DNA of 64,000 nucleotides from Terriglobia bacterium (GTDB lineage Bacteria > Acidobacteriota > Terriglobia > UBA7540 > JAPUME01): contig OZ244973.1 of NCBI GenBank assembly GCA_965222885.1, forward strand, positions 1,157,664-1,221,663. The letters are read 5' to 3'. Shown here piece by piece: positions 5,409 through 63,986 of this stretch. A model generated the notes under the pieces. It made no database searches. It was not told where the DNA came from and saw only the letters and a list, made by a program, of their open reading frames with translations. The number at the start of each line of letters is the position of its first letter. Positions within the stretch are counted from its first letter, which is position 1. A program made the position numbers and the translations under genes.

Positions 5409-5614
5409 GATAATGTTGGCAATAGTCTGGGACTTGCCCGTGCCTGGCGGACCCTGCACCACAAGATTCCTGCCCTCGCGAGCCAAAGAAATGACCTGGG
5501 TCTGAAAGGTATCAGCATCCAGGATGTGCCCGAGATCCCTGGGGTCGGGGAAACGCGTGTCGAGGTTTTCGTCGGGAGCAAAGATGCTAGATTCTGGCTC
5601 GAAGCCGCCGACTA

Positions 5615-8844: not shown

Positions 8845-9990
8845 TTAGAGTCTCAACTGGGACTTTGATGGAATCGCCTTTTTCATCACCGCCTCGGCCT
8901 GCTCCAGGTTCTTGACAGTGCCTGGGAGATCCAGCTTGTTGTCCGGTTTGAAAGCCATCCAGTCGTCCTTCCACCATGCCACAGTCATCCAATTGCCGAT
9001 CACCATCCTATTCGGCTTCATCACCTTGTCCCCACCCGCGGCCTTAACCCGCTCGTGCCAATGCCATTTCAGGTCTTGCTTCTGCTCGCTGGTCTTTCCC
9101 TCTGCGTCAACCTTGAAGCACAGCCTGGCCTCCTCTCCAGGATAGGCTTCGATTTGAAGGTACAATTCGGGATCGGGATTATCTTTCAGCCACCACCAGA
9201 AACCTAGGAACCCCCCGGAGGGGTTAGGAACGTACCCCCATTGGATATGGCGGCAGGTGCCGTTGCCCAACGTGCGTTCGAGGTAAAGATAGAAACCTTC
9301 CCAGCTCCGCCAGGATTCCTGTCCGGCATCCCGGGTCCATTCCACGTAGCTATTGGTTTGGTCCTCCAACTCCCGCAGGTGCTGCCGGAAATCCCACAGG
9401 ATCGAGTTATGGCCCTTGTAGCTGTCGAGCACTTTCAGGAAGTACTTGCGATGGAATACCTTGTAGTTTTTTATGGCCTCGATGCGGCAGTCATTCGCGA
9501 GAGACTGGTTTCCTGTCTTGAGATAAAGCGGGTAGAGATTTATCTCCAGGACCTCGCCGACGAGCTTCGTGCGACCCTCTATGACTTCGTTGTAGTACCT
9601 TTCCAACTGCCTGCCGTGATCCTTGGTGCCCGTCTTGTCCTCAACGAGAAGCACATGCTTGTCATTGATCCGCGCGAGAACGTCGATGCTTCTATCCTGC
9701 TGATGAATCTCTGTCTTGATCTCGTCCTCCAGTTGGATGGGATCTGTGTCGGCCCTCTTGTGATTGAGCAAGGCGAGGACGAACCGGCGGCCGCACCGGC
9801 TCAGTTCTTCCTGCTCCGGTCCGGCGCCTTTCCCCTGGCCTGCCCATTGGATCAACCAGCAGATCATCGCATCCTGCGAGAGTTCCTTGGTGGCGAAGTG
9901 AAACAGGTTGGGATCGCTCAACGGCGTCCAGTATTTCTTGGGTGACTTTACCTTTCCCGGCTTTACATATCCATTGTCGGGTTTGTCCAT
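8845..9990 (-). CDS. PD-(D/E)XK nuclease superfamily protein (PDDEXK_4-like)
   Basis: SIDVLARINDKHVLLVEDKTGTKDHGRQLERYY fits the D...(E/D)xK core with the trailing QL.rY typical of this family. AAGGAGGA lies 7 nt upstream of the ATG. It sits 17 nt downstream of the ankyrin gene. Confidence 0.8.
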   Translation of the reverse strand: MDKPDNGYVKPGKVKSPKKYWTPLSDPNLFHFATKELSQDAMICWLIQWAGQGKGAGPEQEELSRCGRRFVLALLNHKRADTDPIQLEDEIKTEIHQQDRSIDVLARINDKHVLLVEDKTGTKDHGRQLERYYNEVIEGRTKLVGEVLEINLYPLYLKTGNQSLANDCRIEAIKNYKVFHRKYFLKVLDSYKGHNSILWDFRQHLRELEDQTNSYVEWTRDAGQESWRSWEGFYLYLERTLGNGTCRHIQWGYVPNPSGGFLGFWWWLKDNPDPELYLQIEAYPGEEARLCFKVDAEGKTSEQKQDLKWHWHERVKAAGGDKVMKPNRMVIGNWMTVAWWKDDWMAFKPDNKLDLPGTVKNLEQAEAVMKKAIPSKSQLRL

Positions 9991-11199: not shown

Positions 11200-12072
11200 A
11201 TGGACATTATACAGATTTTCCAACGGTTCCCCACTCAAAAAGACTGCATCTCCCACCTTGAGAAAGCCCGCTGGAACGGCACCCCACGTTGCCCCTACTG
11301 CACGTCAACCCGCACGACCAGGATGCAGCTTCGCCATCATTGCTATGAGTGCCACACCTCGTTCAGCGTTACCGTGCGCACCATCTTCCACCATACTCAC
11401 CTGCCGATTCAGAAATGGTTTCTGGCCGTCATCCTGATTCTGAACGCCAAGAAAAGCGTATCGGCTCTCCAACTCTCCCGCGACCTCAAGGTGAACAAGA
11501 ACACCGCCTGGCGGATTGCCATGCAGATTCGGAAGGCCATGACGCAGGCCGAACAACGCAACCTACTCACCGGCATTGTCGAAATGGATGAGACCTATAT
11601 CGGGGGAAAGCCACGGAAAGGTAGCGGGGATCATACTTCCAAGCGGGGCCGGGGAACCGACAAGGCCACAGTGATCGGAGCCGTGGAGCGTGAGGGCCGA
11701 GTGACTGCTAGAAGCGTTATGAAGGGCAAGCTCAAAGGCCGCAACCTGCGGTCCTTCGTGCGAGAGAAAATCGACGCCAAGGACGCCATGCTGATTACCG
11801 ATGAGTACACTGGCTACCGCGGCATGGAGCGGGTACTGCCCCACGCCGTCATCAATCACAGCCGGACCTACGCCGACGGCCCCATCCATACGAACACCAT
11901 CGAGGGATTTTGGGCCCTTCTCAAGCGCGGGATGTTCGGCCAGTTCCACAGTGTGAGCCGACACCACCTGCAACGCTACATCGACGAGTTTTGCTACCGC
12001 TACAACCTGCGGCACGAGAAGCCGGAATCCGCCTTTGATATGACGATCAATCTCGGACTTGGAGTTGAATAA
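11200..12072 (+). CDS. IS1595-family (ISXO2-like) DDE transposase with an N-terminal zinc ribbon
   Basis: CPYCTS...CYECH zinc ribbon, VEMDETYIGGK, LITDEYTGY, NTIEGFWALLKRG and YIDEFCYRYN are classic IS1595 motifs. Confidence 0.9.
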   Translation: MDIIQIFQRFPTQKDCISHLEKARWNGTPRCPYCTSTRTTRMQLRHHCYECHTSFSVTVRTIFHHTHLPIQKWFLAVILILNAKKSVSALQLSRDLKVNKNTAWRIAMQIRKAMTQAEQRNLLTGIVEMDETYIGGKPRKGSGDHTSKRGRGTDKATVIGAVEREGRVTARSVMKGKLKGRNLRSFVREKIDAKDAMLITDEYTGYRGMERVLPHAVINHSRTYADGPIHTNTIEGFWALLKRGMFGQFHSVSRHHLQRYIDEFCYRYNLRHEKPESAFDMTINLGLGVE

Positions 12073-12980
12073 TGAAGGAATCCAAGGAACAGCCTTTGAA
12101 GGTGATCGCCGGAGCACCGGACCGGCCACTTGTGATCGGGAACATCGAGATACCCTGCTACGTACTGGAAGATGAAACCCGTGTACTGAGTCAGCGTGGA
12201 GTAAGCGAGGGGATCGGACTCAACCCAAAGGCCGGCTTTAGAATGCCTCATTTCATGGCCTCTAAAGCAATAAACCCTTTTGTTTCCGATGATTTAGTGC
12301 CGGCTTTGAAATCACCCATCCCATTCAAGAATCCAGTTGGAGGAGGGAATGCTTACGGCTATCCAGCTACCATTCTTCCTAAAATCTGTGCAGCCGTTAT
12401 TGAAGCCAAGAATAAAGGAAAACTGCGACCGCAACATATGAAAGCAGCCGAACGTTGCTGGATTATTATGCAAGGATTTGCGCACGTCGGCATCATCGCT
12501 CTTGTTGACGAAGCAACTGGATACCAGGATCTGCGTGACCGACAGATACTCCAGAAGATACTCGATAAGTATCTTCTGGCAGAGCGTGCAAAATGGGCGA
12601 AGCGATTTCCAGATGATTTCTATAAGGAGATATTTAGGCTTCGTGGATGGCAATGGCAGGGAATGAGAGTTAACCGACCTCAAGTAGTAGCTCATTATAC
12701 GAATGATATTGTGTGGGATCGCCTTGCCCCAGGAGTGCGCGAAGAGCTTGAGAAATTAAATCCTCAAACCCCCCAAGGAACGCGGCGGGCAAGACACCAT
12801 CAATGGCTGACACATGACATTGGTCATCCTTCCCTTCAGAAGCACCTTTACGGAGTTATTGCACTTATGAAGTCAGTAGTTCAATCCAAGGGCGGATGGG
12901 GAGAATTTAAGCGAAGGATTCAACGTGTATTTCCCAAGATTCACACAACCCTCGACCTTCCGTTCAATGAGGATGGGTAG
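12072..12980 (+). CDS. P63C-domain protein (phage-derived DNA-associated domain)
   Basis: ALVDEATGYQDLRDRQILQKILDKYL...WAKRFPDDFYKEIFRLRGW...NDIVWDRLAPGVREEL matches my recollection of the P63C domain. The ATG overlaps the tnp stop (TAATG). Confidence 0.6.
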   Translation: MKESKEQPLKVIAGAPDRPLVIGNIEIPCYVLEDETRVLSQRGVSEGIGLNPKAGFRMPHFMASKAINPFVSDDLVPALKSPIPFKNPVGGGNAYGYPATILPKICAAVIEAKNKGKLRPQHMKAAERCWIIMQGFAHVGIIALVDEATGYQDLRDRQILQKILDKYLLAERAKWAKRFPDDFYKEIFRLRGWQWQGMRVNRPQVVAHYTNDIVWDRLAPGVREELEKLNPQTPQGTRRARHHQWLTHDIGHPSLQKHLYGVIALMKSVVQSKGGWGEFKRRIQRVFPKIHTTLDLPFNEDG

Positions 12981-12982
12981 AG

Positions 12983-14206
12983 ATGCCTCAAAACTGGAAC
13001 AATCGCACCATGTGGACAGGCGACAACCTGGACATAATGCGCGGCATGAACTCCGAGAGCGTTGACCTTATTTACCTGGACCCTCCCTTCAACAGCAATC
13101 GCACGTACAGCGCGCCTATTGGCTCTCAGGCAGCCGGAGCCGCCTTCAAGGATACCTGGACCTTGAGCGACGTGGACAACGCCTGGCATGGCGAGATCGC
13201 GGACCGGCAACCAGCCTTGTACTCGATCATCGACGCTGCCGGTCACTCGCATGGCAAGGGCATGAAGTCCTACCTCATTATGATGGCCGTCCGGCTCCTG
13301 GAAATGCGAAGGATTTTGAAGGAAACGGGGAGCTTGTATTTGCACTGCGATCCGACCGCCAGCCATTACCTCAAATCACTCATGGATGCGATATTTGGGG
13401 CGGGAAACTTCAGAAATGAGATCGTGTGGTGCTATCGAGGGGGGGGGGTGCCCAAGTATGACTTTGCCCGCAAGCACGATATTTTGTTCCGATATTCAAA
13501 GACTGAAAACGTTGTTTTCAATGTGGATGCCGTTCGGGTAGCGTACTCTGAAGATTCGTCTGAACGCCTAAAGTATAAAGCCCGTTCGTTTCGGGAAAGT
13601 GGAACCTATGACAACTACAATCAGAACCCCAGGGGCAAGCATCCTGAAGATTGGTGGCCTATGCAGCCGATCATGCCATCATCCAAAGAACGAGTAGGCT
13701 ATCCCACTCAAAAGCCCCTCGCCCTATTAGATCGCATCATCAAGGCCAGCTCCAACGAAGGCAACCTAGTTCTGGACCCCTTTGCTGGATGCGCCACGGC
13801 TTGCGTGGCCGCCGAACGCCTGCATCGGCAATGGGTGGGCATCGACATATCGGAGAAGGCCGCCGAACTCGTACAGGTCCGCATCCGCAGGGAAATCGAC
13901 CTTTTCCATGACTTCAAGCCGATCCGCCGTTCGGAGGTTCCCCAGCGCACCGATCTAGGAAAGCTGCCGAACTACCGGACGCACAAGCATCAATTATTTG
14001 GAAAGCAGGAAGGACACTGCCGGGGGTGCAGGGTAGCCTTTCCGTTCCGCAACTTCACGGTGGACCACGTGGTTCCGAGAACGCGCGGTGGGACCGACCA
14101 CCTAGATAACCTCCAGCTGCTCTGTGGTGCCTGCAATAGCCTGAAGGGAGACCGAGAACAGCAATACCTGGTTGCCAAACTGCGTGAACAAGGGATACTC
14201 TCATAG
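12983..14206 (+). CDS. Beta-class N4/N6 DNA methyltransferase fused to a C-terminal HNH nuclease
   Basis: Motif IV DLIYLDPPFNS lies near the N-terminus and motif I VLDPFAGCATACVAAERL later, which is the beta-class order. The C-terminal CRGC...DHVVPRTRGGTDHLDNLQLLCGACNSLKG is a canonical zinc HNH. Confidence 0.9.
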   Translation: MPQNWNNRTMWTGDNLDIMRGMNSESVDLIYLDPPFNSNRTYSAPIGSQAAGAAFKDTWTLSDVDNAWHGEIADRQPALYSIIDAAGHSHGKGMKSYLIMMAVRLLEMRRILKETGSLYLHCDPTASHYLKSLMDAIFGAGNFRNEIVWCYRGGGVPKYDFARKHDILFRYSKTENVVFNVDAVRVAYSEDSSERLKYKARSFRESGTYDNYNQNPRGKHPEDWWPMQPIMPSSKERVGYPTQKPLALLDRIIKASSNEGNLVLDPFAGCATACVAAERLHRQWVGIDISEKAAELVQVRIRREIDLFHDFKPIRRSEVPQRTDLGKLPNYRTHKHQLFGKQEGHCRGCRVAFPFRNFTVDHVVPRTRGGTDHLDNLQLLCGACNSLKGDREQQYLVAKLREQGILS

Positions 14207-29190: not shown

Positions 29191-30744
29191 TCAACGGGCC
29201 CTGCCCGCCGTGCTCGCGCGCAGGCCCTTCCAGATGCTGTAGCACATGGCGACCAGCACCAGCGCGAAGGGGAGGCCGGCGGCGAGGGTGGCCGCCTGCG
29301 CGGCCATGAGGCCGCCGCCGAGCAGCAGCGCGATGGCGACGAGCCCCTCGAAGACACACCAGAACACGCGCTGGGCGACCGGCGCGTCCAGCTTGCCGCC
29401 GGCGGTGATGGTGTCGATGACCAGCGATCCGGAGTCGGAGGAGGTGACGAAGAACACCACCAGCAGCACGAGGCCGATGAACGACGTGACGTTCGCAAGC
29501 GGCAGCGTCTCCAGCAACGCGAACAGGGCGATCTCCGGCTGCTGCGTCTGCACCGCCGCGATCACGTCGGGATGACCGCGGTCAACGTACTGCGACACCG
29601 CAGTCCCGCCGAAGGCGTTCATCCAGATCGCGACAATCAGCGTTGGGATGATCAGCATGCAGGCGATCAACTCGCGCACCGTCCGGCCGCGCGAGACCCG
29701 GGCGATGAACAGGCCGACGAAGGGGGACCATGAGATCCACCAGGCCCAGAAGAAGATCGTCCAGCCGTGCATGAAGTGGAGGTCCTCGCGGCCCACCCAG
29801 TTGCTGAGCGGTCCGATCGCCGCGAGATACTGGCCGAGGCTGGTCACGACGCCGGTGGCGATGTCGCGCGTCGGCCCGACCGTCAGCACGAACGCCAGCA
29901 GCAGCAGGGCGAGCAGCAGGTTGGCCTCGCTCAGCCGCTTGATCCCCTTCTCCATCCCGCTGACAACCGACGCCAGCGCCATGCCGGTGATGCCGACGAT
30001 CAGCAGCACCTGGGTGGCGGCGGTCGCCGGCGTGCCCCACAGGTGGGCCACACCCGCCGCCACCTGTTGGGCGCCCAGGCCGAGCGATGTGGCCAGCCCG
30101 AAGAGCGTGGCGAAGACGGCGAGGATGTCGATGCCGTGGCCGAACCGACCCCACACCGCGTCTCCCATGAGCGGATAGAACGCCGACCGCAGCGTCATCG
30201 GCAGGCCGAGGTTGTACGACGCGAAGGCGATCGACAGCGCCACTACCGCGTATATGGCCCACCCATGGATTCCCCAATGGTAGATGGCGCCAGCCATGCC
30301 GAGGCGCGCCGCCGCCGTGTCGGACGCCTCGAGACCGAGCGGCGGTTGCAGGAAATGCTCCACCGGCTCCGACACCCCGAAGAACATCAGGCCGATGCCC
30401 ATCCCGGCGGCGAACAGCATGGCGAACCAGGTCGATCGGGAGTAGTCCGGCCGGGCATCCGCGCCGCCCAGGCGCACGCGGCCGAGCGGCGTCGCCACCA
30501 GCAGCAAGCAGAAGAGCACGAAGAGGTTGCCTGCGCCCATGAACATCCAGTCGAAGGTGGACATGAGCCACGCGCGCAGCGCCCCGAAGGCGGCCGCCGC
30601 CCCGGCCTGGAACGCCAGCACCCCGGCGATGAACGCGATGATGGTGAGGCTGGAGACGACGAAGACCGGATTGTGGATGTCGAGGCCGAGGAACTGGACG
30701 TTGTCCTGCCCCAGCTTGTAGTCGATCTTCGAGATCTCAGCCAT
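29191..30744 (-). CDS. BCCT-family (betaine/carnitine/choline) transporter
   Basis: 517 aa. WTIFFWAWWISWSPFVGLFIARVSRGRTVRE is the BCCT signature. GC is strikingly higher than the flanks. Confidence 0.9.
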   Translation of the reverse strand: MAEISKIDYKLGQDNVQFLGLDIHNPVFVVSSLTIIAFIAGVLAFQAGAAAAFGALRAWLMSTFDWMFMGAGNLFVLFCLLLVATPLGRVRLGGADARPDYSRSTWFAMLFAAGMGIGLMFFGVSEPVEHFLQPPLGLEASDTAAARLGMAGAIYHWGIHGWAIYAVVALSIAFASYNLGLPMTLRSAFYPLMGDAVWGRFGHGIDILAVFATLFGLATSLGLGAQQVAAGVAHLWGTPATAATQVLLIVGITGMALASVVSGMEKGIKRLSEANLLLALLLLAFVLTVGPTRDIATGVVTSLGQYLAAIGPLSNWVGREDLHFMHGWTIFFWAWWISWSPFVGLFIARVSRGRTVRELIACMLIIPTLIVAIWMNAFGGTAVSQYVDRGHPDVIAAVQTQQPEIALFALLETLPLANVTSFIGLVLLVVFFVTSSDSGSLVIDTITAGGKLDAPVAQRVFWCVFEGLVAIALLLGGGLMAAQAATLAAGLPFALVLVAMCYSIWKGLRASTAGRAR

Positions 30745-36078: not shown

Positions 36079-36351
36079 TCATATCTGCCGCCAGACGCCA
36101 TTCGTCAGGTAGCCGTGCCAGTACCCCCTCTTACCTTTACTGGATTCAATCGATGGATTTAAGGTGGGAGACTCACGATTTCCATCCCATACCCAGCCGT
36201 TCGGAACGTTCAGAGGAAGATCGGCTATACCGACGCTAGGTACAAAGCACACAATTTTTTTGTCCCCTTGGGTAAAGTAGAACTCCCCCTCGGCGAGCTT
36301 CTGAAACTCATCCTTACCATCGAGATCGCTTCTATGCACTGCTTTCTTCAT
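36079..36351 (-). CDS. DUF6527-like small protein (cysteines of the usual zinc site replaced)
   Basis: ...LPLNVPNGWVWDGNRESPTLNPSIES...WHGYLTNGVW resembles the W.w.G....PTl.PSI....HgfirnG core as I recall it. Low-certainty family call. Confidence 0.45.
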   Translation of the reverse strand: MKKAVHRSDLDGKDEFQKLAEGEFYFTQGDKKIVCFVPSVGIADLPLNVPNGWVWDGNRESPTLNPSIESSKGKRGYWHGYLTNGVWRQI

Positions 36352-37400
36352 GCGATAGCCTCGACGGACACCGAATAGTTCAGGCTCCCGTCATCCCCCG
36401 GATTAACCCGGATGGCCGCCTTGTCGTCGTAGGTTTGATAAATGGTTTTCTCCCAAGTATCCGAAGCCCCCAGGCTGAAAGAGTACAGAGGGTACTGGAC
36501 TCCATCGTAGCTGAGGATAACTTGTACTCGATTGGGATTCAGTCGGTTGTGTTCAGTGGAATTATTGAACAGGATGATGTTCCAGTTCTTATATCGCTTG
36601 CCATCTGGAACACTCAGAAGAGTCTCCAGAGAGGTTGCCGTTCCCACCACCGCCACCGGTCCTGGTTCTGGTTCCTCGGCAGGAACCTCTGGAGGAGTCG
36701 GCGTTTCCGGCTCCGGAGTTTCAGGAGCAGGCGGATCAGGCTCAGGTTCTACGGTTGGATGGCTCCATGCTCGGGCAGCATCTGCCGTGTTATCAATAAA
36801 CCAGACCGTTGTTCCTAAATTGGTTCCCCCTCTCCAATTTCCTGTTCCCAAGGCGAGGTCTTTTTCTGAGTCTCGCTCTTGTGTTGCCGCGTTAAAGGCT
36901 TTGGCAATATCGTTATAATGACCCACGAACCACAGCGTGGTGCCATCACAGGCCCCACCCTTCCAGGTTTCTGAACCAAGATAGATATCTTTGTCTGCGT
37001 CTCTGTCTCGCGTTGCGGCGTTGTAGGCCCTCGCGTAGTCAGTTTCATTATCAACGAACCACAACGTGGTTCCGTCGCTGATTCCCCCTTCCCACTTCCC
37101 CTCACCGAAAGTAATATCCCTTAACGGTGTTCTCACCCGCGCGTTAGCATTGTAGGCGTAGGCTTTGTTGTCTGCATTACTAATGAGCCACAACGTCATT
37201 CCGTTACTGACGCCCCCATCGTAGTACCCCGTCATATCATGCGCAAAGTGTCGTACCAGCGTCGCAGCGTTGAAGGCAATCAGCTTCTCGTTGGTCGAGT
37301 CAAGAATCCATAGCGTGGTTCCATCGCAGACAGCCCCGTCCCAGTATATGAAATCCTCAAGGATGAGGTCTTTCGAGGTATCCCGTTCGATCATTTTCAA
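36348..37400 (-). CDS. Five-repeat (about 44 aa, DGTTLW...AYNAATR.RD) protein with a Pro/Glu/Thr linker and a C-terminal beta domain; candidate receptor-binding/tail-fibre-like protein
   Basis: Repeats at aa 17-212, linker PTVEPEPDPPAPETPEPETPTPPEVPAEEPEPGP, about 100-aa C-terminal domain. Overlapping start/stop with both neighbours. Confidence 0.8.
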   Translation of the reverse strand: MKMIERDTSKDLILEDFIYWDGAVCDGTTLWILDSTNEKLIAFNAATLVRHFAHDMTGYYDGGVSNGMTLWLISNADNKAYAYNANARVRTPLRDITFGEGKWEGGISDGTTLWFVDNETDYARAYNAATRDRDADKDIYLGSETWKGGACDGTTLWFVGHYNDIAKAFNAATQERDSEKDLALGTGNWRGGTNLGTTVWFIDNTADAARAWSHPTVEPEPDPPAPETPEPETPTPPEVPAEEPEPGPVAVVGTATSLETLLSVPDGKRYKNWNIILFNNSTEHNRLNPNRVQVILSYDGVQYPLYSFSLGASDTWEKTIYQTYDDKAAIRVNPGDDGSLNYSVSVEAIA

Positions 37401-39574: not shown

Positions 39575-40084
39575 ATGGAGTTCCAACTAGGAGAAAAGGT
39601 TGTGTATCCAAATCAAGGAGTTGGAACGATCGAGCAAATTTCCAGCAAGGGATTTAACGGACGCCCCGAGGGTTATTACCTGCTGCGGATTCGGTCCAAT
39701 AGCCTTCGCGTCATCGTGCCCTTTACCAGTACCCAGACCGTAGGGCTGCGACGAGTGGCCAAAGGTAAGGAGCTGAGTGGGATTCTCAATTTCGTACAGA
39801 ATGGCCAATGCGCTATGGCCCGCAATTGGAAATGGCGTTATAAGGAAAATTGCGACAAGATGCGGAGCGGCGAGTTGCAGCACGTGGCCGAGGTCCTTAA
39901 ATCCCTCCTGACCCTCAACCAGGATAAGGCCCTCTCCTTCCGGGAAAAGAAGATGCTCGAACGGGCATGGCAGTTGCTGGTGGAGGAAATCGCCACCGTC
40001 CGCAATTGCTCCCGCCAAGCGGGTGAATTACTTCTCTCCAAGGTGGTTACCAAAGCCAACCTGAAACCGGTCCTGCCTAACTGA
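39575..40084 (+). CDS. carD: CarD/CdnL family RNA-polymerase-binding regulator
   Basis: FQLGEKVVYPNQGVGTIEQI...YYLLRI...VPF is the CarD_CdnL_TRCF N-domain. Confidence 0.9.
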   Translation: MEFQLGEKVVYPNQGVGTIEQISSKGFNGRPEGYYLLRIRSNSLRVIVPFTSTQTVGLRRVAKGKELSGILNFVQNGQCAMARNWKWRYKENCDKMRSGELQHVAEVLKSLLTLNQDKALSFREKKMLERAWQLLVEEIATVRNCSRQAGELLLSKVVTKANLKPVLPN

Positions 40085-40274
40085 GCAGGAAGACATTCCC
40101 CCCTAACCTCACTGAATGGGGCCTCATTCATCTCTTTATGCTTCGCGGACCCCGGAACCTCCCGGGCTGACCCGTCGTAATTGCAATGGCTCCTGAATAT
40201 ACGGAAGTGTAGGTAACGGGAGAATATTTTTCCACCGAATTGAGGCCTTTTTACAGCCCCTTTCCACAGGTTTT

Positions 40275-40320
40275 GCACAATATTTTGCGGTTTGGCCGGA
40301 ACTGGCCCAATATTTAGTGG
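40275..40320 (+). promoter_or_regulatory. Two tandem NrdR boxes upstream of nrdJ
   Basis: GCACAATATTTTGCGG (40275-40290) and GCCCAATATTTAGTGG (40305-40320) each match the acaCwAtATaTwGtgt consensus at 12/16 positions and start 30 bp apart. They are followed by TTGACA (40330-40335) and TATAAA (40351-40356). Confidence 0.6.
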
Positions 40321-40520
40321 CTTTTTTCCTTGACAAGCACTCCTTCCTTTTATAAATTCACCTTGGCACAGGTCTTCAAGTCGGGTACCTGAAACGGGAG
40401 CAATAGACGGCAAAAGTAATTTGCCATTTGTCCATGGGTTTCCCACGGGGGTGCGCGGCAGGTTGCCTGTCCTAATTCCTCATTGATTTCGTTAATTACA
40501 TAGAGCACGGAGGTACAACG

Positions 40521-52313: not shown

Positions 52314-52587
52314 GGGGTGAACTCCGGGTTAGCAGCCTGCGGCTGGGAAGCGACCTGGGGTCGCGCCCGCATTGGCCAGGCCGGTTGGGGGGTTGCGAGT
52401 GAAGGCGGGGCTGGCCGGCTGACCTGCATGGGCCTTGCGGCTGACTTGTCGGAATGGGGCGGAAATTGGGGTTCGGTGCGGTGGAGGGGAATCGTATTTC
52501 TTGAATTCCTGGGAAGTGGGTGCTAATTTTAGAAATTGGGGTTCTGGCCGTTTCCCCTTTGCGGCCGGCCGGGTCCCAGGGGAGTCA

Positions 52588-55305
52588 ATGATGATAGCGA
52601 AAAAGGGCGCCTTCGGTGCCTTGGCATCTTTGCGGTGGAGGGGCGGCACTGCGTCCCTGTATCGACTTGACCGACTCGAAAAAGTGGGTCTGGGCAACGT
52701 CTCCAGCCTTCCGTTTTCACTGAAAGTCCTGCTGGAATCCCTACTGCGGAATTGTGATGGGTTGCACGTCACCGAGGAGGACGTGGCCGCGCTGGCGGGT
52801 TGGAAGTCTGACTCGCCTGCGGCCCGCGAGGTGCCCTTCAAGCCGGCCCGGGTTATCCTGCAGGATTTTACGGGTGTGCCGGCGGTGGTGGATTTGGCCG
52901 CCATGCGTGCAACGATGCAGCGTCTGGGAGGCGACCCTGCGCGGGTCAACCCCCAGGTTCCCGTGGATCTGGTGATTGACCATTCCGTACAGGTCGATGT
53001 ATTCGGCACGCCGATGGCGCTGCAGCGCAACGCGGAGGTCGAGTTCCAACGCAATCGGGAACGCTACGAATTCCTCCGTTGGGGACAGCAGGCTTTTCGC
53101 AATCTCCGTGTCATCCCTCCCGCTACGGGGATCGTGCACCAGGTAAACCTGGAATTCATTGCCAAAGTCGTGCTGGCTCGCCAGCAAGGTAAGGATGCCG
53201 TGCTGTTCCCGGATACCCTGGTGGGCACCGATTCCCACACCACCATGATTAACGGGCTGGGCGTACTCGGCTGGGGCGTAGGAGGCATCGAGGCGGAGGC
53301 GGCCATGCTGGGCCAACCCTACTACTTCCTGACTCCGCGGGTCGTGGGATTCAAACTGAAGGGCCGATTGCCGGATGGCGTTACCGCCACCGATCTGGTG
53401 CTGACCATCACCGAGAGGCTGAGGAAACATGGGGTGGTGGACAAATTCGTCGAGTTCTACGGCGAAGGGCTTTCCCAAATGACTCTGGCGGATCGGGCCA
53501 CCGTGGCCAATATGTCACCCGAATATGGTGCGACGGTGGGATTGTTTCCCGTGGATGAGGAAACCCTTCGCTACCTTCGGCAAACCGGCCGCACCGACGA
53601 GGAAGTGGAGCGGGTCGAACGCTATACCAAGGAACAGGGCCTGTTCGCTACGGACCGGACCGCGGAGCCCCGGTTCGCCGATAGGTTGGCATTGGACTTG
53701 GAGACCGTGGAGCCGAGTCTGGCCGGCCCCAAACGTCCGCAGGACCGCGTCCCTCTCTCGCGGATGAAAAGCTCCTTCCGGCAGGCGCTCACGGCCCCGG
53801 TCAAGGATCGCGGCTTCGGTCTGTCACGCGAGGAGCAGGGCCGCCGGGCGACGATTGCCGTCAACGGCGCGCAATCAGAGATCACCCATGGCTTGGTCGT
53901 CATTGCCGCCATTACCTCGTGCACGAACACCTCGAATCCGTCGGTCATGTTGGGAGCCGGATTGGTAGCCAGGAAGGCGGTGGAACGCGGCCTGCGCGTG
54001 GCCCCGTATGTAAAGACCAGCCTGGCGCCCGGGTCGAAGGTAGTCACCGAGTATCTGACCGAAGCGGGGCTGCTCGAGCCGCTGGCCGAGCTCGGTTTTC
54101 ATCTGGTGGGATACGGCTGTACCACCTGCATTGGCAACAGCGGTCCGTTGCCCCGCGAGGTGCGGGAAGCGGTCGCCGGGAATCAATTGGTCGCGGCAGC
54201 CGTTTTATCAGGCAACCGGAACTTCGAGGGACGCGTTCATCCCCATGTGCGTGCCAACTACCTGGCGTCCCCGCCGCTGGTGGTAGCCTATGCTTTGGCG
54301 GGCCGGGTGGACCTCGACCTGACCCGGGATCCTCTGGGCCGAGATAGCGCCGGCGCGCCCGTTTATCTGCGGGACATTTGGCCTTCTCCTCAAGAGGTCG
54401 CCGCGGTGATGAACCGGGCCATCCGCCCCGAGATGTTCCGCAAGGCCTACGCAAACGTCTGGGACAGCAACCCGACTTGGAACGCCGTGCCGGTCTCCGG
54501 GGGGGCTCTCTACGGGTGGCGGCCTGGGTCCACCTACATTCAGGAACCGCCGTTCCTGGCTCGGGTGGGTGCCGGACCCACGCCCATCGACGACATTCGC
54601 GGAGCCCGGATATTGGCGTTGTTGGGCGACTCGATTACCACCGACCATATCTCGCCCGCGGGGAGCATTCCGGAAGCAAGCCCGGCGGGCCGCTTCTTGC
54701 TGGAGCAGGGCGTCCCGCATACGGATTTTAACTCCTACGGCTCCCGGCGAGGCAATGACCGCGTGATGATGCGCGGCACCTTTGCCAACACCCGCCTCAA
54801 AAACTTTCTGGTGCCCGGAACCGAAGGCGGCCTGACGGTTCACTTTCCTGACGGTGAGCGCATGGCGATTTACGACGCGGCGGTGCGTTACCGCGAGGAA
54901 GGCGTGCCGCTGATGGTGATCGCCGGGAAGGAATATGGGTCGGGCTCCTCACGGGACTGGGCGGCCAAGGGAACGCTGCTGCTGGGGATCAAGGCCATCC
55001 TGGCGGAAACCTATGAAAGGATTCACCGCAGCAACCTGGTGGGAATGGGGGTTTTGCCTCTTCAGTTTCTGGAGAGGGAAGACGCGGCCTCGCTCGGTTT
55101 GACGGGCCGCGAGGTCTTCCATGTCGAGGGACTCAGCGACCCGGTGTCACCGCGGTCGCGTGTAACCGTCACGGCCGAGGGGCCGGACCGCAGACGTCGC
55201 CGGTTCCAAGCGATGGTAAGGCTGGATTCCGACGTCGAGCTTGACTACTACCGCAACGGCGGTATCCTTCCTACCGTCCTGCGGAGCCTGCTCAGGGAAG
55301 CCTAA
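52588..55305 (+). CDS. acnA: Aconitate hydratase A
   Basis: [19 protein letters not shown]...[13 protein letters not shown]...[10 protein letters not shown]...[10 protein letters not shown]...SRDWAAKG. Confidence 0.95.
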
Positions 55306-55402
55306 GAAGGAGCTCGGTGTCGGGGTCGCAGCGAGCCACCACCGAAAGAATTGCGAGGGCCACCTCTACGACAGGCGATCCAATCAATCAGGGGGTTTGT
55401 AC

Positions 55403-56842
55403 ATGAAGTCTTATAACGGCGCGCCGGTTCCAGCCGACGGAGAAAAGATCCAATTCCAAAGGGGACGATTTGCGGTTTCTTCGCGTCCCATCATTCCCTT
55501 TATCGAAGGTGACGGAACCGGACGCGACATCTGGAAGGCATCCCGGCGCGTCTTTGACGCCGCGGTCGCCAAGGCCTTCGGCGGCAAGAGAAAAGTTGCC
55601 TGGTACGAGATTTTCGCCGGCGAGAAGGCCTTCCAGAAGTTCAATCAGTGGTTGCCGGCCGATACGGTCGAAGCCATCCGGGAGTTCCGCGTCGCGATCA
55701 AGGGGCCGTTGACGACTCCGGTGGGCGGGGGCATTCGCAGTCTGAACGTAACCCTTCGGCAGTTGCTCAATCTTTATGCCTGCGTGCGGCCGGTGAAATA
55801 TTTTGCGGGAGTGCCTTCGCCGGTCAAGCATCCGCAGCGCATGAACACGGTGGTTTTCCGCGAGAACACCGAAGACGTCTATGCGGGGATCGAATGGCTC
55901 CAGGGAAGCGCGCAAGCGGCGCAGGTGATCGCGTTCATCAACGCCCAGCTCGCCTCCGAGGGCTCTTCGAAGCGGGTCCGGGAGGATTCCGGGGTGGGGA
56001 TCAAGCCCATCTCCGTTACCGGGACCCATCGACTGGTGCGGCGGGGTATCCGCTACGCCCTCGAGCGCGGGCGAAAAAGCGTGACCCTGGTTCACAAAGG
56101 CAACATCATGAAGTTCACCGAGGGAGCTTTCCGGGACTGGGGCTATCAGCTTGCCCGGGACGAATTTCGTAGCCAGACCGTCAGCGAACGGGAGAGTTGG
56201 ATCCTGGCCAACCGGGAAAAGAACCCCCGGTTGACCGTGGAAGAGAACGCCGCCACGATCGAGCCGGGCCTGGCGCACGCCCCCCGGGATTTCCGGGAGC
56301 AGATTCATGCCGAGGTGAAAGAGTGTCTCGACCAGCTTTGGGCCTCGCACGGCAACGGCCAGTGGAAAGAGAAGGTGCTGATCAAAGACCGCATCGCCGA
56401 TTCCATGCTCCAGCAGATCCTGACCCGCGCGGACGAATATGACGTGGTCTGCACCCCGAATCTCAACGGTGACTATCTCTCCGACGCCTGCGCCGCTCAG
56501 GTGGGCGGCTTGGGACTTGCGCCGGGGGCCAACGTCGGCGATGAGCACGGCCTTTTCGAGGCCACCCACGGGACCGCTCCCAAGTATGCCGACCAGGACG
56601 TGATCAATCCCAGCGCCGTCATCCTGGCGGGCAGTCTGATGTTCGAGTTCATCGGCTGGATCGAGGCGCACGACCTGATCGAGCAGGCCCTGGGAGAGAC
56701 CATCCGGCAGCGCCGCGTCACCTACGACCTGGAGCGGTTGATGAAGATGGAAGGCGTCCCCAACGTCCACAAGCTTGGCACGCAGGCCTTTGCCAGCGCC
56801 ATCATCGAGAATATGGACCGCGTGCCAGCCAACCCGGCTTAA
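55403..56842 (+). CDS. icd: NADP-dependent isocitrate dehydrogenase
   Basis: [14 protein letters not shown]...[21 protein letters not shown]...[10 protein letters not shown]... Confidence 0.95.
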
Positions 56843-56876
56843 CGGGCCAGTCATCCCGGCGGAGGATGAGGTAAGC

Positions 56877-58736
56877 ATGGCTACTAGAAGAGAGCAAGTT
56901 CAGGAATGGATTGAATGGTCGCGGCAAAATCTGCCGGAAACAGGGCACTACCCGGAGCTTGATGTTACGGAGATTAAAGGGACAGAGTGTCCATGGCAGG
57001 GGGAAATCCGCTCTGAGTTTGATGAGGTTGGCGTTGGTACTACTGAGGGGTACGGGCGGCGACAGGAAATCGTCGATGAGCTACTCGCCGTGTTCGAAGA
57101 TCAGCTTTCTCGCGACCCGGGCGACGTGAGTATCAGGTTCACGGCACTGAATCTTTATTACGCAGTATCTCGTTACGAACGAACTCCTTACGACTGTTCT
57201 GAATACTCCGAAGAGTGGGAGCGCGAGCAATTTGCCGAAAAACTTCCTTATCTTGTGCGCTTGCTGCCAGTGGAGGATGTTTGTAAAGATTGGCGAACGA
57301 TCCGCTGGGAAATTGGCAACGCGTACTATATTCGGGATTGGGAACGTGCCGGGCGACTTTACGACCGCCTGGTGGCGCTCGATCTCGACAACCCGGACCA
57401 GGCCGAGAGACACTTCCTCCGGGGCCAATTTCATTTTCTCAGGGTTTTGGGACCCAAGATAAATCCGAAATTCGATCTTCGGTTCTGGGAGCCTGAGCAC
57501 AGGACTTATTCATGGAGTCTCGTCCCCGCGAAGGAGATCACTCTCGATGCCGCTGAGCGCGACAGAATATGCGATGCCGCGCATGACCTTCGTAAAGGCT
57601 TAATCAACCGTGCCGATATTTCACCCGCATATCGTTCCATGTTGGCGTTCTGCTATTTTGCAACGGACGATTTTCATAAAGCAGCAGAGAAATACGAGCA
57701 AGCTCTATATGAGTTTAAGGAGAGGAAAAAAAAGACAGCGAAGAAACTATTAGATAACAAGGGAGCCGTTCAAGAATTGATTAAGCAGGGGCTGACGTTT
57801 GAAGAAGCACTCGCTGAGTTGGGGATGAGCTATGGAGATACAGGAAGCAGAGAGGTCCCCCTATACACATCTATTGCCACCAGCTACCAGCGAGCAGGTG
57901 ATACAGAAAAAGCAAAGGACGCGCTGAAGCGGTGTGCCGGCGAGTTTCCCAACGCGAAGGGAATTTATAAGGAGTTGGCTAGAATCCAAGCTCAAGCAGC
58001 AGATTACCGTTCGGCTTATGAGAGCTTGACCAAGGAGCTTGAGCGGGATCCAACCTTCGGTGAGGATTGGTTGGTTTCGACTGCATTAGCCTTGGGAGGC
58101 GTGGATAGTAGTGAGCAGATCGCCACTCGCGTAGAGAACTACCTCAGATCAAATCCCCAACGCGCTGAGGCCTTAGAGTCTCTTCTGAGAACACATTGGC
58201 CTTCGGTGGGCCATCTGACCGATAAGGCCCGGAAAAAATGGATTGGCGGCAGCTACATGATCTTGAATCTCCCGGTTGATGTGCAACTGCGCCAGGTCCT
58301 GGCAGGACAGGCGGCGACTTTGTTCGCCACGGCGGTAGAACTGGAACTCAAGGCAAAGGTGTTCGGGGAATTTCGCAATGATGTCTTACAGTCCTCTGAG
58401 TTTCGATCACTGGCTGAGCAGGAGAGTTCTTTGCCTGAATGCAGGCCATTCTGTCTATTCCTTGTCGGAGGGAGGCCAATGACCCTCGGCCAGATGCACT
58501 ACGTCCTCAGGGACTGCCGAGACTCTAAGCGGGACATATTGAGACGATTCAATCATTGGGTTCAAAAGAATCGACCTCTACTCCTCAAAAAACTTCGGGT
58601 GTTAGAAAAGATTTACGGCATCCGTGGGCCTGCGGTGCATGGGAGTATTTCAAAAGAAGATGCTGAAAGAATGCCTCACTTATGTCGGGATTTTCTCTCG
58701 GAGTTATTGCCAAGTCCACAACATGAAACAAGTTAG
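56877..58736 (+). CDS. TPR-like repeat protein with a C-terminal HEPN-like domain (R-x4-H)
   Basis: 619 aa, GGAGGA 7 nt upstream of the ATG. Helical repeat body. The C-terminus reads ...LFATAVELELKAKVF...LEKIYGIRGPAVHGSISKEDAERM... GC is visibly lower than the flanking icd/mdh. Confidence 0.8.
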   Translation: MATRREQVQEWIEWSRQNLPETGHYPELDVTEIKGTECPWQGEIRSEFDEVGVGTTEGYGRRQEIVDELLAVFEDQLSRDPGDVSIRFTALNLYYAVSRYERTPYDCSEYSEEWEREQFAEKLPYLVRLLPVEDVCKDWRTIRWEIGNAYYIRDWERAGRLYDRLVALDLDNPDQAERHFLRGQFHFLRVLGPKINPKFDLRFWEPEHRTYSWSLVPAKEITLDAAERDRICDAAHDLRKGLINRADISPAYRSMLAFCYFATDDFHKAAEKYEQALYEFKERKKKTAKKLLDNKGAVQELIKQGLTFEEALAELGMSYGDTGSREVPLYTSIATSYQRAGDTEKAKDALKRCAGEFPNAKGIYKELARIQAQAADYRSAYESLTKELERDPTFGEDWLVSTALALGGVDSSEQIATRVENYLRSNPQRAEALESLLRTHWPSVGHLTDKARKKWIGGSYMILNLPVDVQLRQVLAGQAATLFATAVELELKAKVFGEFRNDVLQSSEFRSLAEQESSLPECRPFCLFLVGGRPMTLGQMHYVLRDCRDSKRDILRRFNHWVQKNRPLLLKKLRVLEKIYGIRGPAVHGSISKEDAERMPHLCRDFLSELLPSPQHETS

Positions 58737-58771
58737 CGGAAAGAGAAAATTGACTCAAAAGGAAACCGCAA

Positions 58772-59698
58772 ATGCGTAAAAAGGTAACCGTTGTCGGGGC
58801 GGGCAACGTGGGGGCCACCGTGGCTCACCGGCTGGCCGACAAGCAACTGGCGGACGTGGTGCTGATCGACATTATCGAAGGGGTGCCCCAGGGCAAAGGG
58901 CTGGACCTGCTCGAATCCGGGCCGGTCGAGGGGTATGACCTTCAGGTTCGCGGCACCAACGACTATCGAGATACGGCCGGGTCGGACCTCGTCGTGGTCA
59001 CCGCGGGATTTCCCCGCAAGCCGGGCATGAGCCGGGACGACCTGCTGAAGAAGAACTACCAGATCGTCAAAGGCACGGTGGAGCAGGTGGCTCGAAACTC
59101 GCCCGAGTGCATTCTCATCATTGTTACCAACCCGCTGGACGCCATGGTGCAGACCGCTTACCGGGTGAGCGGCTTCCCGAAGCACCGGGTCATCGGCATG
59201 GCGGGCATCCTCGATACCGCCCGTTACCGCACTTTTCTGGCCGAAGCTCTGGAGGTCAGCGTGCAGAACATCTCCGGCTTCGTGCTGGGCGGGCACGGAG
59301 ACACCATGGTTCCGGTGCCTCGCTATACCACGGTGGCCGGCATCCCCGTCACCGAGCTCCTGCCCGCCGATCAGCTCGAGCAGATCATTCAGCGGACCCG
59401 CGACGGCGGCGCGGAAATTGTCGGATTGCTCAAGGCCGGCAGCGCCTACTACGCTCCCTCGGCGGCCGTCGTGGAGATGGTGGACGCCATCTTCCATGAC
59501 CGCAAGAAAATCCTGCCGTGCGCCGCCTTTCTGGAAGGGGAATATGGCATTCACGGACTCTTTGTCGGGGTTCCGGTGAAACTGGGCGCGCGGGGCATCG
59601 AGCAGATCATCGAGCTGAAGCTGACCGCCCAGGAGCAGGCCGGCCTTGAGAAATCCGCCCATGCCGTCCGGGAACTGGTGGAGATCATCCAGGTTTGA
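58772..59698 (+). CDS. mdh: Malate dehydrogenase (LDH-like MDH)
   Basis: [15 protein letters not shown]...[16 protein letters not shown]...GGHGDTMVP. Confidence 0.95.
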
Positions 59699-59709
59699 GG
59701 GAGGGGTCT

Positions 59710-59726
59710 CGCCCCAACGCGGGGCG
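59710..59726. terminator. GC hairpin between the convergent mdh and sulfatase genes (possible bidirectional terminator)
   Basis: CGCCCC-AACGC-GGGGCG, a 6-bp stem with no clear U-tract. Confidence 0.25.
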
Positions 59727-59729
59727 CGG

Positions 59730-61133
59730 TCAGTCGATATAGCCGAGGGTTCTTAAAACCTCGATGTCCCGCTTTTTCAAGGTGGGGCGATTCTTCGCGT
59801 GACGGTTGGTGGATCGATACCAACTTTTCAGGTGGTCCACTCGGGCGCGGATGGGAGAAGGCGATTCCCCCGCGAAGATGGGGTTCTCTTCATTCCGGTC
59901 CTGCGCCAGATTGAACACTTCCACTTCGTTGGAGGTCGGAGTCCAGATGAGCTTTCGATCCCCCCTAAGCTGGCCCATCTTCAGAGGAAGTTTTTTCCCG
60001 GAGGGAAGATGCCAGAGCCACGAGATCCACTTTGGCGCCTGCCCCGGCTTTCCGGGGAAAGTCATGAAATAGGTGGAGCGATCCTCTGGTAGCGGCAGGT
60101 CGTCCATATACGGCAGGAGGGACTTTCCCTGGAAAGGCAAGGGAGGCTCGACGCCGACCAAGTCAAGAATCGTGGGTGTCACGTCCAGAAGCGTGACGTT
60201 CTGTCGCACCACCCGTCCGGTCGGCAGCGCTCCGGGGTGGTGGAAGATCATAGGGATGCGCACGATGTTGTCGTAGAGTTGACGCCCATGGCCCACGTAG
60301 TCCCGCTCGCCGAGGCTCTCGCCGTGGTCGGCCAGAACCACGGTAAGAGTGGAATCTCGAATACCCAGCTTCTGCATCTCATCCAACAGCTTGCCGATGT
60401 GGTGATCCGTATAGGCGATTTCGCTGTCGTAATTGCGGATTCGTTCCTCCATTTCCTCATCCTCGGGCCGGGTACGGGAATGGCCCGCGGGATTCGGTTT
60501 GAGGTCGGCAAATTCCTCCCACAGAACGTAGGGGCCGTGCGGATCAAAATAGTGGACCCAGAGAAAAAACGGCTGCTCATAATGACTCCGTAGCCACTCC
60601 ATCGCTTTGGGAGTCACGTCCTCGGCGGATCGATAAGAGTTGAGCCATTGGTAATTGCGGCCAAATTCCTGGTCGTAAACCTGGAATCCGCGATGGAGCC
60701 GCGTCAATCTCTTCTTCAGCGGCCAGGCACTCACATAGGCGGCTGTCCGGTAGCCGTTCCTTTCCAGGATGCGAGCGAGGGTCAGCAGGCGGGGATCACG
60801 GGCAACAGGTTGGCCGTTGACTCGGGCGCCGGTTTCCTGCGGATAGCGGCTCGTGAACAGGCTGGTGTGAGCGGGTCCGGTTAAGGGAATGGTGGTGCGT
60901 GCCCGCTCGAAACGGACCCCTTGTTCGGCCAGGCGGTCGAGCCGCGGCGAAGTAATCAGATGGTATCCATAACAGGACAGATGGTCCGCGCGCAGCGTGT
61001 CAACGGTGATCAAAACGACGCTGGTGCGAGGCTGCGGACGCTCCGCTAGGGTCGGCAGGCTCCCGATGAAAAGCGCCAGCCCCCCAGCCAGAAGGCAACT
61101 CATCCGTACCTTTGTACTCTTTAGGAGGTGCAT
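59730..61133 (-). CDS. Sulfatase-family (alkaline-phosphatase superfamily) protein, secreted
   Basis: VVLITVDTLRADHLSCYGY...TSLFT...ADHGESLGE. Confidence 0.85.
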   Translation of the reverse strand: MHLLKSTKVRMSCLLAGGLALFIGSLPTLAERPQPRTSVVLITVDTLRADHLSCYGYHLITSPRLDRLAEQGVRFERARTTIPLTGPAHTSLFTSRYPQETGARVNGQPVARDPRLLTLARILERNGYRTAAYVSAWPLKKRLTRLHRGFQVYDQEFGRNYQWLNSYRSAEDVTPKAMEWLRSHYEQPFFLWVHYFDPHGPYVLWEEFADLKPNPAGHSRTRPEDEEMEERIRNYDSEIAYTDHHIGKLLDEMQKLGIRDSTLTVVLADHGESLGERDYVGHGRQLYDNIVRIPMIFHHPGALPTGRVVRQNVTLLDVTPTILDLVGVEPPLPFQGKSLLPYMDDLPLPEDRSTYFMTFPGKPGQAPKWISWLWHLPSGKKLPLKMGQLRGDRKLIWTPTSNEVEVFNLAQDRNEENPIFAGESPSPIRARVDHLKSWYRSTNRHAKNRPTLKKRDIEVLRTLGYID

Positions 61134-63431: not shown

Positions 63432-63986
63432 ATGTTTGTGGCCAAAAAAATCTTTCTGACCAAGGGTGTCGGAAAGAGCCGCGAAAGGCTGAGTTCCTTT
63501 GAACTGGCTCTTCGTTCGGCTGGTATTGCGGCCTTCAACCTTGTCCGCGTCTCCAGCATCTTTCCCCCGGGTTGCCGGCTGATCTCCCGGGCCCAGGGCA
63601 TGAGAGCGCTCCGGCCGGGTCAGGTCGTATATGCCGTCATGAGTGAAAACTCGACGCGTGAACCGCACCGACTGGTAGCGGCGTCCATCGGTCTGGCTCT
63701 GCCGGCCGACAAGAAGATGTACGGCTACCTCTCCGAACACCACTCCTTCGGCGAGACCGAGGAGGTGGCGGGCGAATATGCCGAGGAGTTGGCGGCCGAG
63801 ATGCTGGCCACCACGCTGAATGTGGAGTTCGACCCCGACCGAAGCTGGGACGAAAAGAAGGAAATCTATCGCATCTCGAACCGTATAGTACGCACGACGG
63901 AAACCACCCAATCCGCCATCGGGGACAAGCAAGGCCGATGGACTACGGTGTTGGCAGCGGCCATTATGCTGGGGAGCGAAGATTGA
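63432..63986 (+). CDS. pdaD: Pyruvoyl-dependent arginine decarboxylase
   Basis: ...[18 protein letters not shown]... carries the self-cleavage Ser-Ser site context. The size (184 aa) is typical. Confidence 0.85.

Follow-up and report, generated by a model that had tools for sequence, protein, structure and literature searches.

Between the tricarboxylic acid (TCA) cycle genes icd and mdh of a Terriglobia bacterium (contig OZ244973.1) lies an open reading frame (ORF) of 619 amino acids (aa), which is called gene X in the following. It is located in a stretch of 64,000 nucleotides (nt), referred to as the window, and all positions are counted within this window. The results are best explained by the reading that gene X encodes a TPR-gated HEPN RNase of the conflict or defence type, and that it is an old resident of the icd-mdh site; a probability of about 0.55 was assigned to this reading. 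It is based on HEPN signature residues that are conserved in a wide protein family, on a predicted TPR solenoid, on the gene order at the icd-mdh junction of related genomes, and on the fast and mosaic evolution of the gene.

HEPN Signatures in the C-Terminal Domain

HEPN RNases are characterized by an Rx4-6H motif, in which the Arg tends to be followed by a polar residue (mostly N, D or H), by an upstream acidic residue that is typically part of an Ex3[KR] motif, and by a bundle of four helices, the second and third of which are separated by an insert (PMC3710099). An initial annotation of the window, which was made from the sequence letters, had noticed an R-x4-H spacing near the C-terminus of X and had taken it for a HEPN motif. 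A single Rx4H is not beyond chance for a protein of this composition (1 seen versus 1.15 expected), and it is meaningful because it is conserved across the family, not because of its lone occurrence. The C-terminal domain was used for a profile search of 1.84 billion representative proteins (E ≤ 0.001), which yielded 385 clusters at 50% identity. The domain was C-terminal in all of them, and the proteins carrying it were about 600, 320 or 190 aa long. Pfam TPR matches were present in 72 of 100 full-length relatives, and no recognised catalytic domain was found in these 100 proteins among the 25 of 39 Pfam families listed for them.

The conservation of the motifs was counted over 109 full-domain representatives. 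H588 was retained in all 109 and E488 in 108 of them (99%), R583 was present in 97 (89%), E490 in 103, and a K or R at position 492 in 80 (73%). Position 584 was occupied by N in 72 representatives (66%), by G in 12 and by D in 7; X itself has a Gly at this position (compare the RGDATH variants). It was verified that R583 and H588 are the conserved motif of the family, and the Ex3K (E488-K492), which the initial annotation had quoted but not interpreted, represents the second HEPN signature.

All 12 representatives without R583 had a basic residue at position 587 (K in ten cases, R in two), while in the 97 representatives with R583 a K587 never occurred and an R587 was found only twice (p = 2.9e-14). 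The same exchange was seen among the close orthologues, most of which read HNxAKH with R583 replaced by His. The sequence [IV]-[HQ]-N-x-[AV]-K-H was present in 28 of 34 close orthologues, and all 28 that have H or Q at position 583 have K587. This covariation indicates selection for a basic residue next to the invariant His, as predicted by a catalytic site and not by a mere scaffold, and it argues for the presence of a live active site in the predicted domain.

The C-terminal 172 aa were also modelled alone with AlphaFold2, a structural check that had been suggested by the initial annotation. An all-helical domain with eight helices was predicted (pLDDT 91.7), and the Foldseek matches of highest probability in the PDB were HEPN proteins (2q00, 7bxo_G, 1wwp and 4nqf), but none of the matches was significant. 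X itself matched none of the existing HEPN profiles (0 families at E ≤ 10), its last 169 aa had no match in Pfam, NCBIfam or PADLOC (E ≤ 10), and a PDB sequence-profile search with the orthologue profile yielded nothing. A broad profile retrieved only the APP E2 domain and a terpene cyclase from the PDB, which were rejected as spurious helical matches. In a homologue search, the broad domain profile retrieved two proteins only, the word index falling short of the family. Relatives of X, searched with the domain only, had sub-threshold Pfam matches to five different HEPN families (RiboL-PSP three times, MAE_28990, Abi_2, Apea and Swt1; E 0.002-0.08), which, where located, covered the motif and the last helix. 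In addition, weak PADLOC matches of relatives to Csx1, AbiD and CARF_HEPN and a PHROGs match to an "abortive infection resistance protein" were obtained. Taken together, the C-terminal domain probably belongs to the HEPN superfamily, as judged from sequence conservation and structure prediction. It fits no existing HEPN family model, including that of the TPR-fused LA2681 family. The family has a sparse but wide distribution, and it is not covered by any Pfam, NCBIfam or PADLOC model.

The TPR Body of the Protein

The initial annotation had described the body of X as TPR-like helical repeats, and this was confirmed by Pfam, AlphaFold2 and Foldseek. TPR families were the sole Pfam families in X (aa ~150-400), and the gathering cut-offs were passed by TPR_14 (31.4 bits, cut-off 23.5), TPR_6 (30.3, cut-off 26.3) and TPR_7 (29.1, cut-off 27.9). 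AlphaFold2 predicted an all-helical full-length protein (pLDDT 92.8, pTM 0.78), and Foldseek retrieved the TPR superhelices of consensus-TPR, LGN and OGT proteins with E values down to 6.6e-5 and a probability of 1.00. No P-loop or STAND match was found in the Pfam scan of X, and the sole match of X in a PADLOC scan was a weak one of the TPR region to LmuB (E = 5e-4, 16 bits). The N-terminus is devoid of a hydrophobic signal-like stretch, as read by eye (no predictor was run).

Residence at the icd-mdh Junction

The junctions of related genomes were compared using icd homologues as anchors, and the P0038 locus was included. The orthologue set comprised 41 proteins with 30-64% identity to X, and the hosts were uncultivated Acidobacteriota (Ca. 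Versatilivorator, "Terriglobia bacterium" and "Acidobacteriota bacterium") as well as one contig binned as Gammaproteobacteria. X was found directly 5′ of mdh in four of six genomes, i.e., the window and the loci L013, L016 and L017, and it was absent from L014 and L015. The gene order acnA-icd-X-mdh was present in L013, the icd of which is 97% identical, and in L016 (icd 78%), where X is interrupted by a single in-frame stop. L014 (icd 87%) has the order acnA-icd-mdh with a gap of 74 nt and no X. In L017 the order is icd-radical SAM-frdDCBA(-)-X-mdh, and a remnant of the icd 3′-end (~40 nt, at 6880-6930) has remained just 5′ of X. The same frd rearrangement is found in L015, where both the icd remnant and X are deleted (counterpart region 12690-13057). 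Some of the X-bearing relatives have an mdh whose synonymous divergence (dS) from the window mdh is 1.1-1.4, and X and mdh are on the same strand with gaps of 25-47 nt across the genomes. The repeats found were short and at chance level, none of them brackets gene X, and no mobile-element gene is adjacent.

The simplest history that is compatible with these sequence comparisons starts from the order icd-X-mdh in the ancestor, from which X was later lost in some lineages, so that X would not be a recent insertion, and the empty junctions of L014 and L015 are best read as losses. Insertion scars are not expected to be visible after such a history. The initial annotation had proposed a precise insertion of X between icd and mdh, and a recent, precise insertion could not be upheld, because X is present at the site in genomes with an mdh dS above 1. 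Relatives with a gene-free icd-mdh junction, which it had suggested to look for, do exist, and X shows a presence/absence polymorphism. Universal presence of orthologues at this junction together with native codon usage had been named as an observation that would speak against a foreign gene; the result lies between the two outcomes, as orthologues are common but not universal at the site and do not have native codon usage in any host.

The stop codon in L016 (7456-9210) splits the X orthologue into ORFs of 286 aa and 216 aa; this copy is either a pseudogene or was split by an error in the long-read assembly. In genomes of the Ca. Versatilivorator type X is located elsewhere, between genes for a GFO/SGL oxidoreductase and an octopine-dehydrogenase-like protein. 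The 5.5-kb contig binned as "Gammaproteobacteria bacterium" (L010, VXUA01000033.1) contains the start of an X orthologue with 55% identity; this is either a case of mis-binning or a transfer outside the Acidobacteriota.

The lower GC content of gene X, which had been stated in the initial annotation, was confirmed. The GC content of X is 0.511, compared to 0.618-0.633 for acnA, icd and mdh, and the GC content at third codon positions (GC3) is 0.534, compared to 0.75-0.81 for the same three genes. The long ORFs of the window have a mean GC3 of 0.665 with a standard deviation of 0.09, and X is about 1.4 standard deviations below this mean. The low GC3 is thus a local contrast and not extreme for the window as a whole, in which a few other low-GC3 ORFs are present. 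In every genome examined the GC3 of X was 0.53-0.545, while that of host genes ranged from 0.65 to 0.87. The same low value in every host shows that the low GC content is a property of the gene and does not represent a date stamp.

Fast and Mosaic Evolution

The ratio of nonsynonymous to synonymous divergence (dN/dS) of X was 0.35-0.69, compared to 0.07-0.19 for the flanking genes in the same genome pairs. A value of 0.69 was obtained for the pair of the window and L013, and all pairs were below 1. In the comparison with L013 (X at 7560-9380) the flanks were 96-100% identical, and X contained three sharply bounded replaced patches with insertions and deletions (Table 1), set in a background of 97-100% identity. 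Patch 3 includes a Lys-rich insertion of 155 nt (57707-57861), which is absent from 33 of 33 other aligned orthologues, and the L013 copy has an internal duplication in this patch. The last 215 nt of X, which contain the C-terminal 70 codons, were identical to L013. In the AlphaFold2 model the patches mostly coincide with loops of the solenoid and with inserts that are predicted at lower confidence.

The synonymous divergence between the window and L013 was 0.07-0.10 upstream of X (acnA and icd, 52585-56842) and 0.003-0.008 downstream of X (mdh and a sulfatase gene, 58772-61133). This drop indicates a recombination boundary between the two genomes within gene X. Within X, not only dN but also dS is raised, which points to the import of divergent alleles and not to point mutation alone. 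A diversity-generating retroelement was considered as a source of the patches and was set aside; insertions, deletions and whole-segment replacements are present, a nearby repeat is missing, and a reverse transcriptase was sought in the ORF list only.

Genomic Contexts of Distant Homologues

In six of seven contexts of homologues away from mdh, genes for insertion sequence (IS) elements, integrases or toxin-antitoxin systems were present within ~6 kb, a count that is uncontrolled but in line with a conflict-system role. The neighbouring genes comprise IS21, UvrD fragments and DarT (L018), a phage-type integrase (L019), IstB and a MazF-domain protein (L020), IS110 and an exonuclease (L021), PIN/DUF433 and MNT/HepT pairs (L024), and HigBA-like genes (L003). 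At L002 no IS, integrase or toxin-antitoxin genes were found near the X homologue. A small conserved ORF that might encode a partner (antitoxin) was not present beside X in the contexts examined. With tblastn, the X domain had no match in phage or plasmid records, and the family members P0174 and P0165 had none in plasmid records; a locus search with a narrower alignment retrieved four metagenome loci and no viral contig.

An additional observation was made at L003, a genome of the Ca. Versatilivorator type, where a HigB/HigA-like pair and a gene for a 216-aa protein of unknown family are inserted just 5′ of the X orthologue (4342-5718). The inserted genes have a GC3 of 0.57-0.65, and they are absent from the otherwise syntenic L002. 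An equivalence of this 216-aa ORF with the 216-aa ORF of L016 was considered and rejected, as the latter is the C-terminal half of X itself.

Comparison With Known Systems

The X domain shares with HEPN RNases, e.g., the HepT toxins of HepT-MNT (PDB 7bxo and 1wwp) and the KEN domains of Ire1 and RNase L, the Rx4H with an invariant His, the upstream Ex3[K/R] and the all-helical domain, which is C-terminal in X (PMC3710099). The best-probability structural matches of the X domain are HepT-like HEPN proteins. In contrast to these enzymes, the X domain, which has a size of ~170 aa, contains additional helices between those that bear the two motifs, it lacks a significant profile or structure match, a Gly follows the Arg in X, and in most close orthologues the basic residue is shifted from position 583 to 587. 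The family consensus RNxxxH is arranged like the R-N...H of KEN.

The bacterial LA2681-like TPR-HEPN family (Pfam HEPN_LA2681) has the layout of TPR repeats and a HEPN domain in common with X. Its model matched neither X (E ≤ 10) nor 40 domain-only relatives (E ≤ 5), and it was absent among the 25 of 39 families listed for the 100 full-length relatives; at the sequence level, a membership of X in this family is not supported. HEPN families of the Abi type (AbiD/AbiF, i.e., Pfam Abi_2, RiboL-PSP-HEPN, MAE_28990-like and ApeA-like), several of which are single-protein abortive-infection effectors, were weakly matched by relatives of X in the motif and the last helix. These families are devoid of the ~450-aa TPR solenoid of X, and the matches were below the curated cut-offs (E 0.002-0.08).

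DS-11, which was described in the DefensePredictor study, is a validated single-protein defence system composed of CBS and HEPN; it forms a dimer, and defence is lost upon mutation of the catalytic HEPN residues (PMC13092281). X would share with DS-11 the fusion of a regulatory or ligand-binding domain to a HEPN nuclease. The sensor of DS-11 is CBS and that of X would be TPR. An analogy to X also exists in Avs/STAND NTPases with TPR sensors, in which the TPR solenoid is a rapidly diversifying recognition surface. Unlike these proteins, X does not have an NTPase module.

Proposed Function and Alternative Explanations

According to the proposal made above, X would be a cytoplasmic protein of about 70 kDa, in which the first ~447 residues would form a TPR-type helical solenoid and the last ~170 residues a HEPN domain with the full catalytic signature, of which Ex3K would be part of the first long helix while Rx4H would precede the last one. 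Two HEPN domains would pair, and X would then act as a metal-independent RNase, as other HEPN enzymes do. The solenoid with its hypervariable surface loops would bind a protein or peptide ligand and would gate the RNase. X would thus unite sensor and effector in one protein and act in conflict, in defence or as a toxin. The ancestral gene order would have been icd-X-mdh, and since then X would have disappeared on two occasions and acquired an interrupting stop codon on one, and recombination would have remodelled it repeatedly. X is probably read through together with the TCA genes, because the gaps between X and mdh are only 25-47 nt long. An abortive-infection role of X may be inferred, the supporting contexts being those of distant homologues.

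Several observations weigh against a TPR-gated RNase of the defence type. In the window X sits among housekeeping TCA genes, without a defence island and without a partner gene. Its C-terminal domain has no match to a defence-system model in PADLOC, and the residue after the Arg is a Gly and not one of the typical polar residues. The searches of viral contigs, phages and plasmids did not retrieve any X homologue, and the association of homologues with mobile and toxin-antitoxin genes is anecdotal, as it comprises seven loci without a control.

Four other explanations were weighed. A recent horizontal insertion, by which a foreign low-GC defence gene would have been placed precisely between icd and mdh, would be in line with the GC3 of 0.53 compared to 0.75-0.81 for the neighbours, with the empty junction of L014 despite an icd that is 87% identical, and with the different locus of the homologues in Ca. 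Versatilivorator; moreover, the X tree places the window copy with the Versatilivorator clade and not with the syntenic L016 and L017 copies. It is, however, the rival that is most directly contradicted by the data and is considered improbable. X is directly 5′ of mdh in four genomes, including those with an mdh dS of 1.1-1.4, the icd 3′ remnant precedes X in L017, X is deleted in the same rearranged background in L015, repeats, IS or an integrase are missing, and the low GC3 of X is equal in every host. The long-lived adjacency of X and mdh on the same strand with a spacing of 25-47 nt would fit a housekeeping or regulatory RNA-processing factor that is coupled to mdh and the TCA operon and, e.g., processes or stabilises the transcript. 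Such a factor would also agree with the lack of terminator- or promoter-like sites beyond chance between icd, X and mdh, with the position of X in L017 as the first gene before mdh after the divergent frd operon, and with the missing antitoxin-like partner. Nevertheless it is unlikely, because X is dispensable (absent in L014 and L015, interrupted in L016), resides at another locus in Versatilivorator genomes, has a dN/dS that is three to five times that of its neighbours as well as replaced patches, and has distant homologues that adjoin IS and toxin-antitoxin genes and not mdh.

A non-catalytic TPR scaffold, in which the C-terminal domain would be a helical cap or binding domain, e.g., of an "eukaryote-like" repeat protein of a host-associated bacterium, is similarly doubtful. 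The lack of a significant HEPN match by sequence or structure, the Gly at position 584 of X and the His in place of R583 in most close orthologues would be expected, and variable surface loops would suit a binding protein, too. On the other hand, an invariant His, a near-invariant Glu and a perfect R/K covariation in about 110 divergent representatives are hard to explain without a chemical role, and the N-terminus has no hydrophobic signal-like stretch by eye (again, no predictor was run). It is highly improbable that X is a decaying selfish remnant, i.e., a former toxin or defence gene that has no present function here and drifts to loss. The two losses and the stop codon in L016, the high dN/dS (0.69 versus L013) and the unique Lys-rich insertion would be compatible with decay, but the ORF of 619 aa is intact and retains every signature residue, dN/dS stays below 1 in each genome pair, the last 70 codons do not differ from those of L013, and the AlphaFold2 model is confident over the whole chain.

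Going beyond the TPR-gated HEPN RNase that is preferred here, it is tempting to speculate that X is the founding member of an uncharacterised family of immune sensors that consist of a single protein. Cassette-like TPR loops, which strains would exchange by recombination, would recognise an invader protein and release a HEPN RNase with an unusual, movable basic residue (R583 or K587). The gene would long have been a fixed part of the icd-mdh transcription unit, and immunity would therefore be co-expressed with central metabolism. This extended proposal is tentative, and it is regarded as possible rather than probable.

Fusions of TPR and HEPN as well as defence systems in which a sensor and HEPN are combined in a single protein are already known, and the kind of protein is therefore not new. 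New are the sizeable family that is missed by current models, the movable basic residue of the motif, and the long residence in a TCA run combined with cassette-like variation. If the interpretation is true, the HEPN family to which X belongs is new; it comprises about 400 sequence clusters, which are mostly fused to TPR and are missed completely by current annotation and by defence-finder models. The R583/K587 swap would represent a natural experiment on the question which basic residue the HEPN active site needs, and the patchwise replacement of TPR loops in near-identical genomes would be a tractable case of the diversification of a recognition surface in uncultivated bacteria. For genome scans the locus is a cautionary example, as a low GC content between housekeeping genes mimicked a fresh insertion, and synteny reveals a gene that has long resided at the site, has been lost repeatedly and recombines.

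Coordinates and Neighbouring Genes

The features of the locus are summarized in Table 1. ORF and Pfam analyses verified the run of TCA genes acnA, icd and mdh and the 619-aa gene in the icd-mdh gap, both of which had been described in the initial annotation. The exact gap from the icd stop to the mdh start is 56843-58771; the open frame that holds gene X spans 56775 to 58736 on the plus strand with the ATG at 56877, which leaves 34 nt from the icd stop (56842) and 35 nt to the mdh start (58772). The GGAGGA that had been assigned to X as its own ribosome-binding site is present, but it is not conserved in L013, the closest relative. The statement that IS, integrase genes and flanking repeats are missing holds within the window. 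An Rfam match or a paralogue of gene X was not found within the window, and sites that resemble promoters or terminators were at chance level between icd, X and mdh; the idea that X is flanked by a promoter, a terminator or a cis-regulatory RNA was rejected.

Table 1. Positions of the genes, domains, motifs and variable patches at the icd-mdh junction of the window.
Feature	Position	Strand	Evidence and remarks
acnA (aconitate hydratase)	52585..55305	+	Pfam Aconitase 3.5e-169 and Aconitase_C; syntenic in L013, L014, L016
icd (NADP isocitrate dehydrogenase)	55403..56842	+	Pfam Iso_dh 7.7e-84; homologues named NADP-dependent isocitrate dehydrogenase
Shine-Dalgarno-like GGAGGA	56861..56866	+	Read in the sequence, 10 nt 5′ of the gene X ATG
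Gene X, TPR and HEPN-like, 619 aa	56877..58736 (including stop)	+	ORF list; start conserved across 34 orthologues; AlphaFold2
N-terminal helical region and TPR superhelix (aa 1-447), proposed sensor/regulatory part	56877..58217	+	Pfam TPR_14, TPR_6, TPR_7; Foldseek
Variable patch 1 (about aa 29-68)	56962..57078	+	26-40 of 60 identical in sliding windows versus L013
Variable patch 2 (about aa 88-144)	57139..57306	+	29-50 of 60 identical, insertions/deletions; overlaps the aa 99-108 loop (pLDDT 71)
Variable patch 3 (about aa 204-330)	57487..57864	+	Lowest-GC part of X (0.484); Lys-rich insertion
C-terminal HEPN-like domain (aa 448-619)	58218..58733	+	AlphaFold2; profile search; motif statistics; sub-threshold Pfam
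E488-L-E-L-K492, Ex3[K/R] motif in long first helix	58338..58352	+	Translation; family conservation
R583-G-P-A-V-H588, Rx4H motif	58623..58640	+	Translation; family conservation; R583 and K/R587 covariation
mdh (malate dehydrogenase)	58772..59698	+	Pfam Ldh_1_N and Ldh_1_C; X-mdh adjacency in L013, L016, L017

A further, conserved run of genes is located downstream (63432-63986, and beyond it in L001 and L017), which comprises sulfatase (minus strand), PhoD, pyruvoyl-dependent arginine decarboxylase, deoxyhypusine-synthase-like and arginase genes. They are presumably polyamine genes without a relation to gene X.

Several other ORFs of the window have an unusual base composition. The ORF with the lowest GC content (12072-12980, plus strand; GC 0.483, GC3 0.449) encodes a P63C-domain protein (Pfam 7.9e-34) and may be another foreign or accessory gene. 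A low-GC ORF at 2901-3938 on the minus strand (GC 0.50) encodes a zinc ribbon together with DUF5677, and low-GC3 ORFs without Pfam matches were also found at 36348-37400 and 39838-40446. A gene for a BCCT betaine/carnitine/choline transporter (29191-30744, minus strand) has a GC3 of 0.93, compared to the window mean of 0.665.

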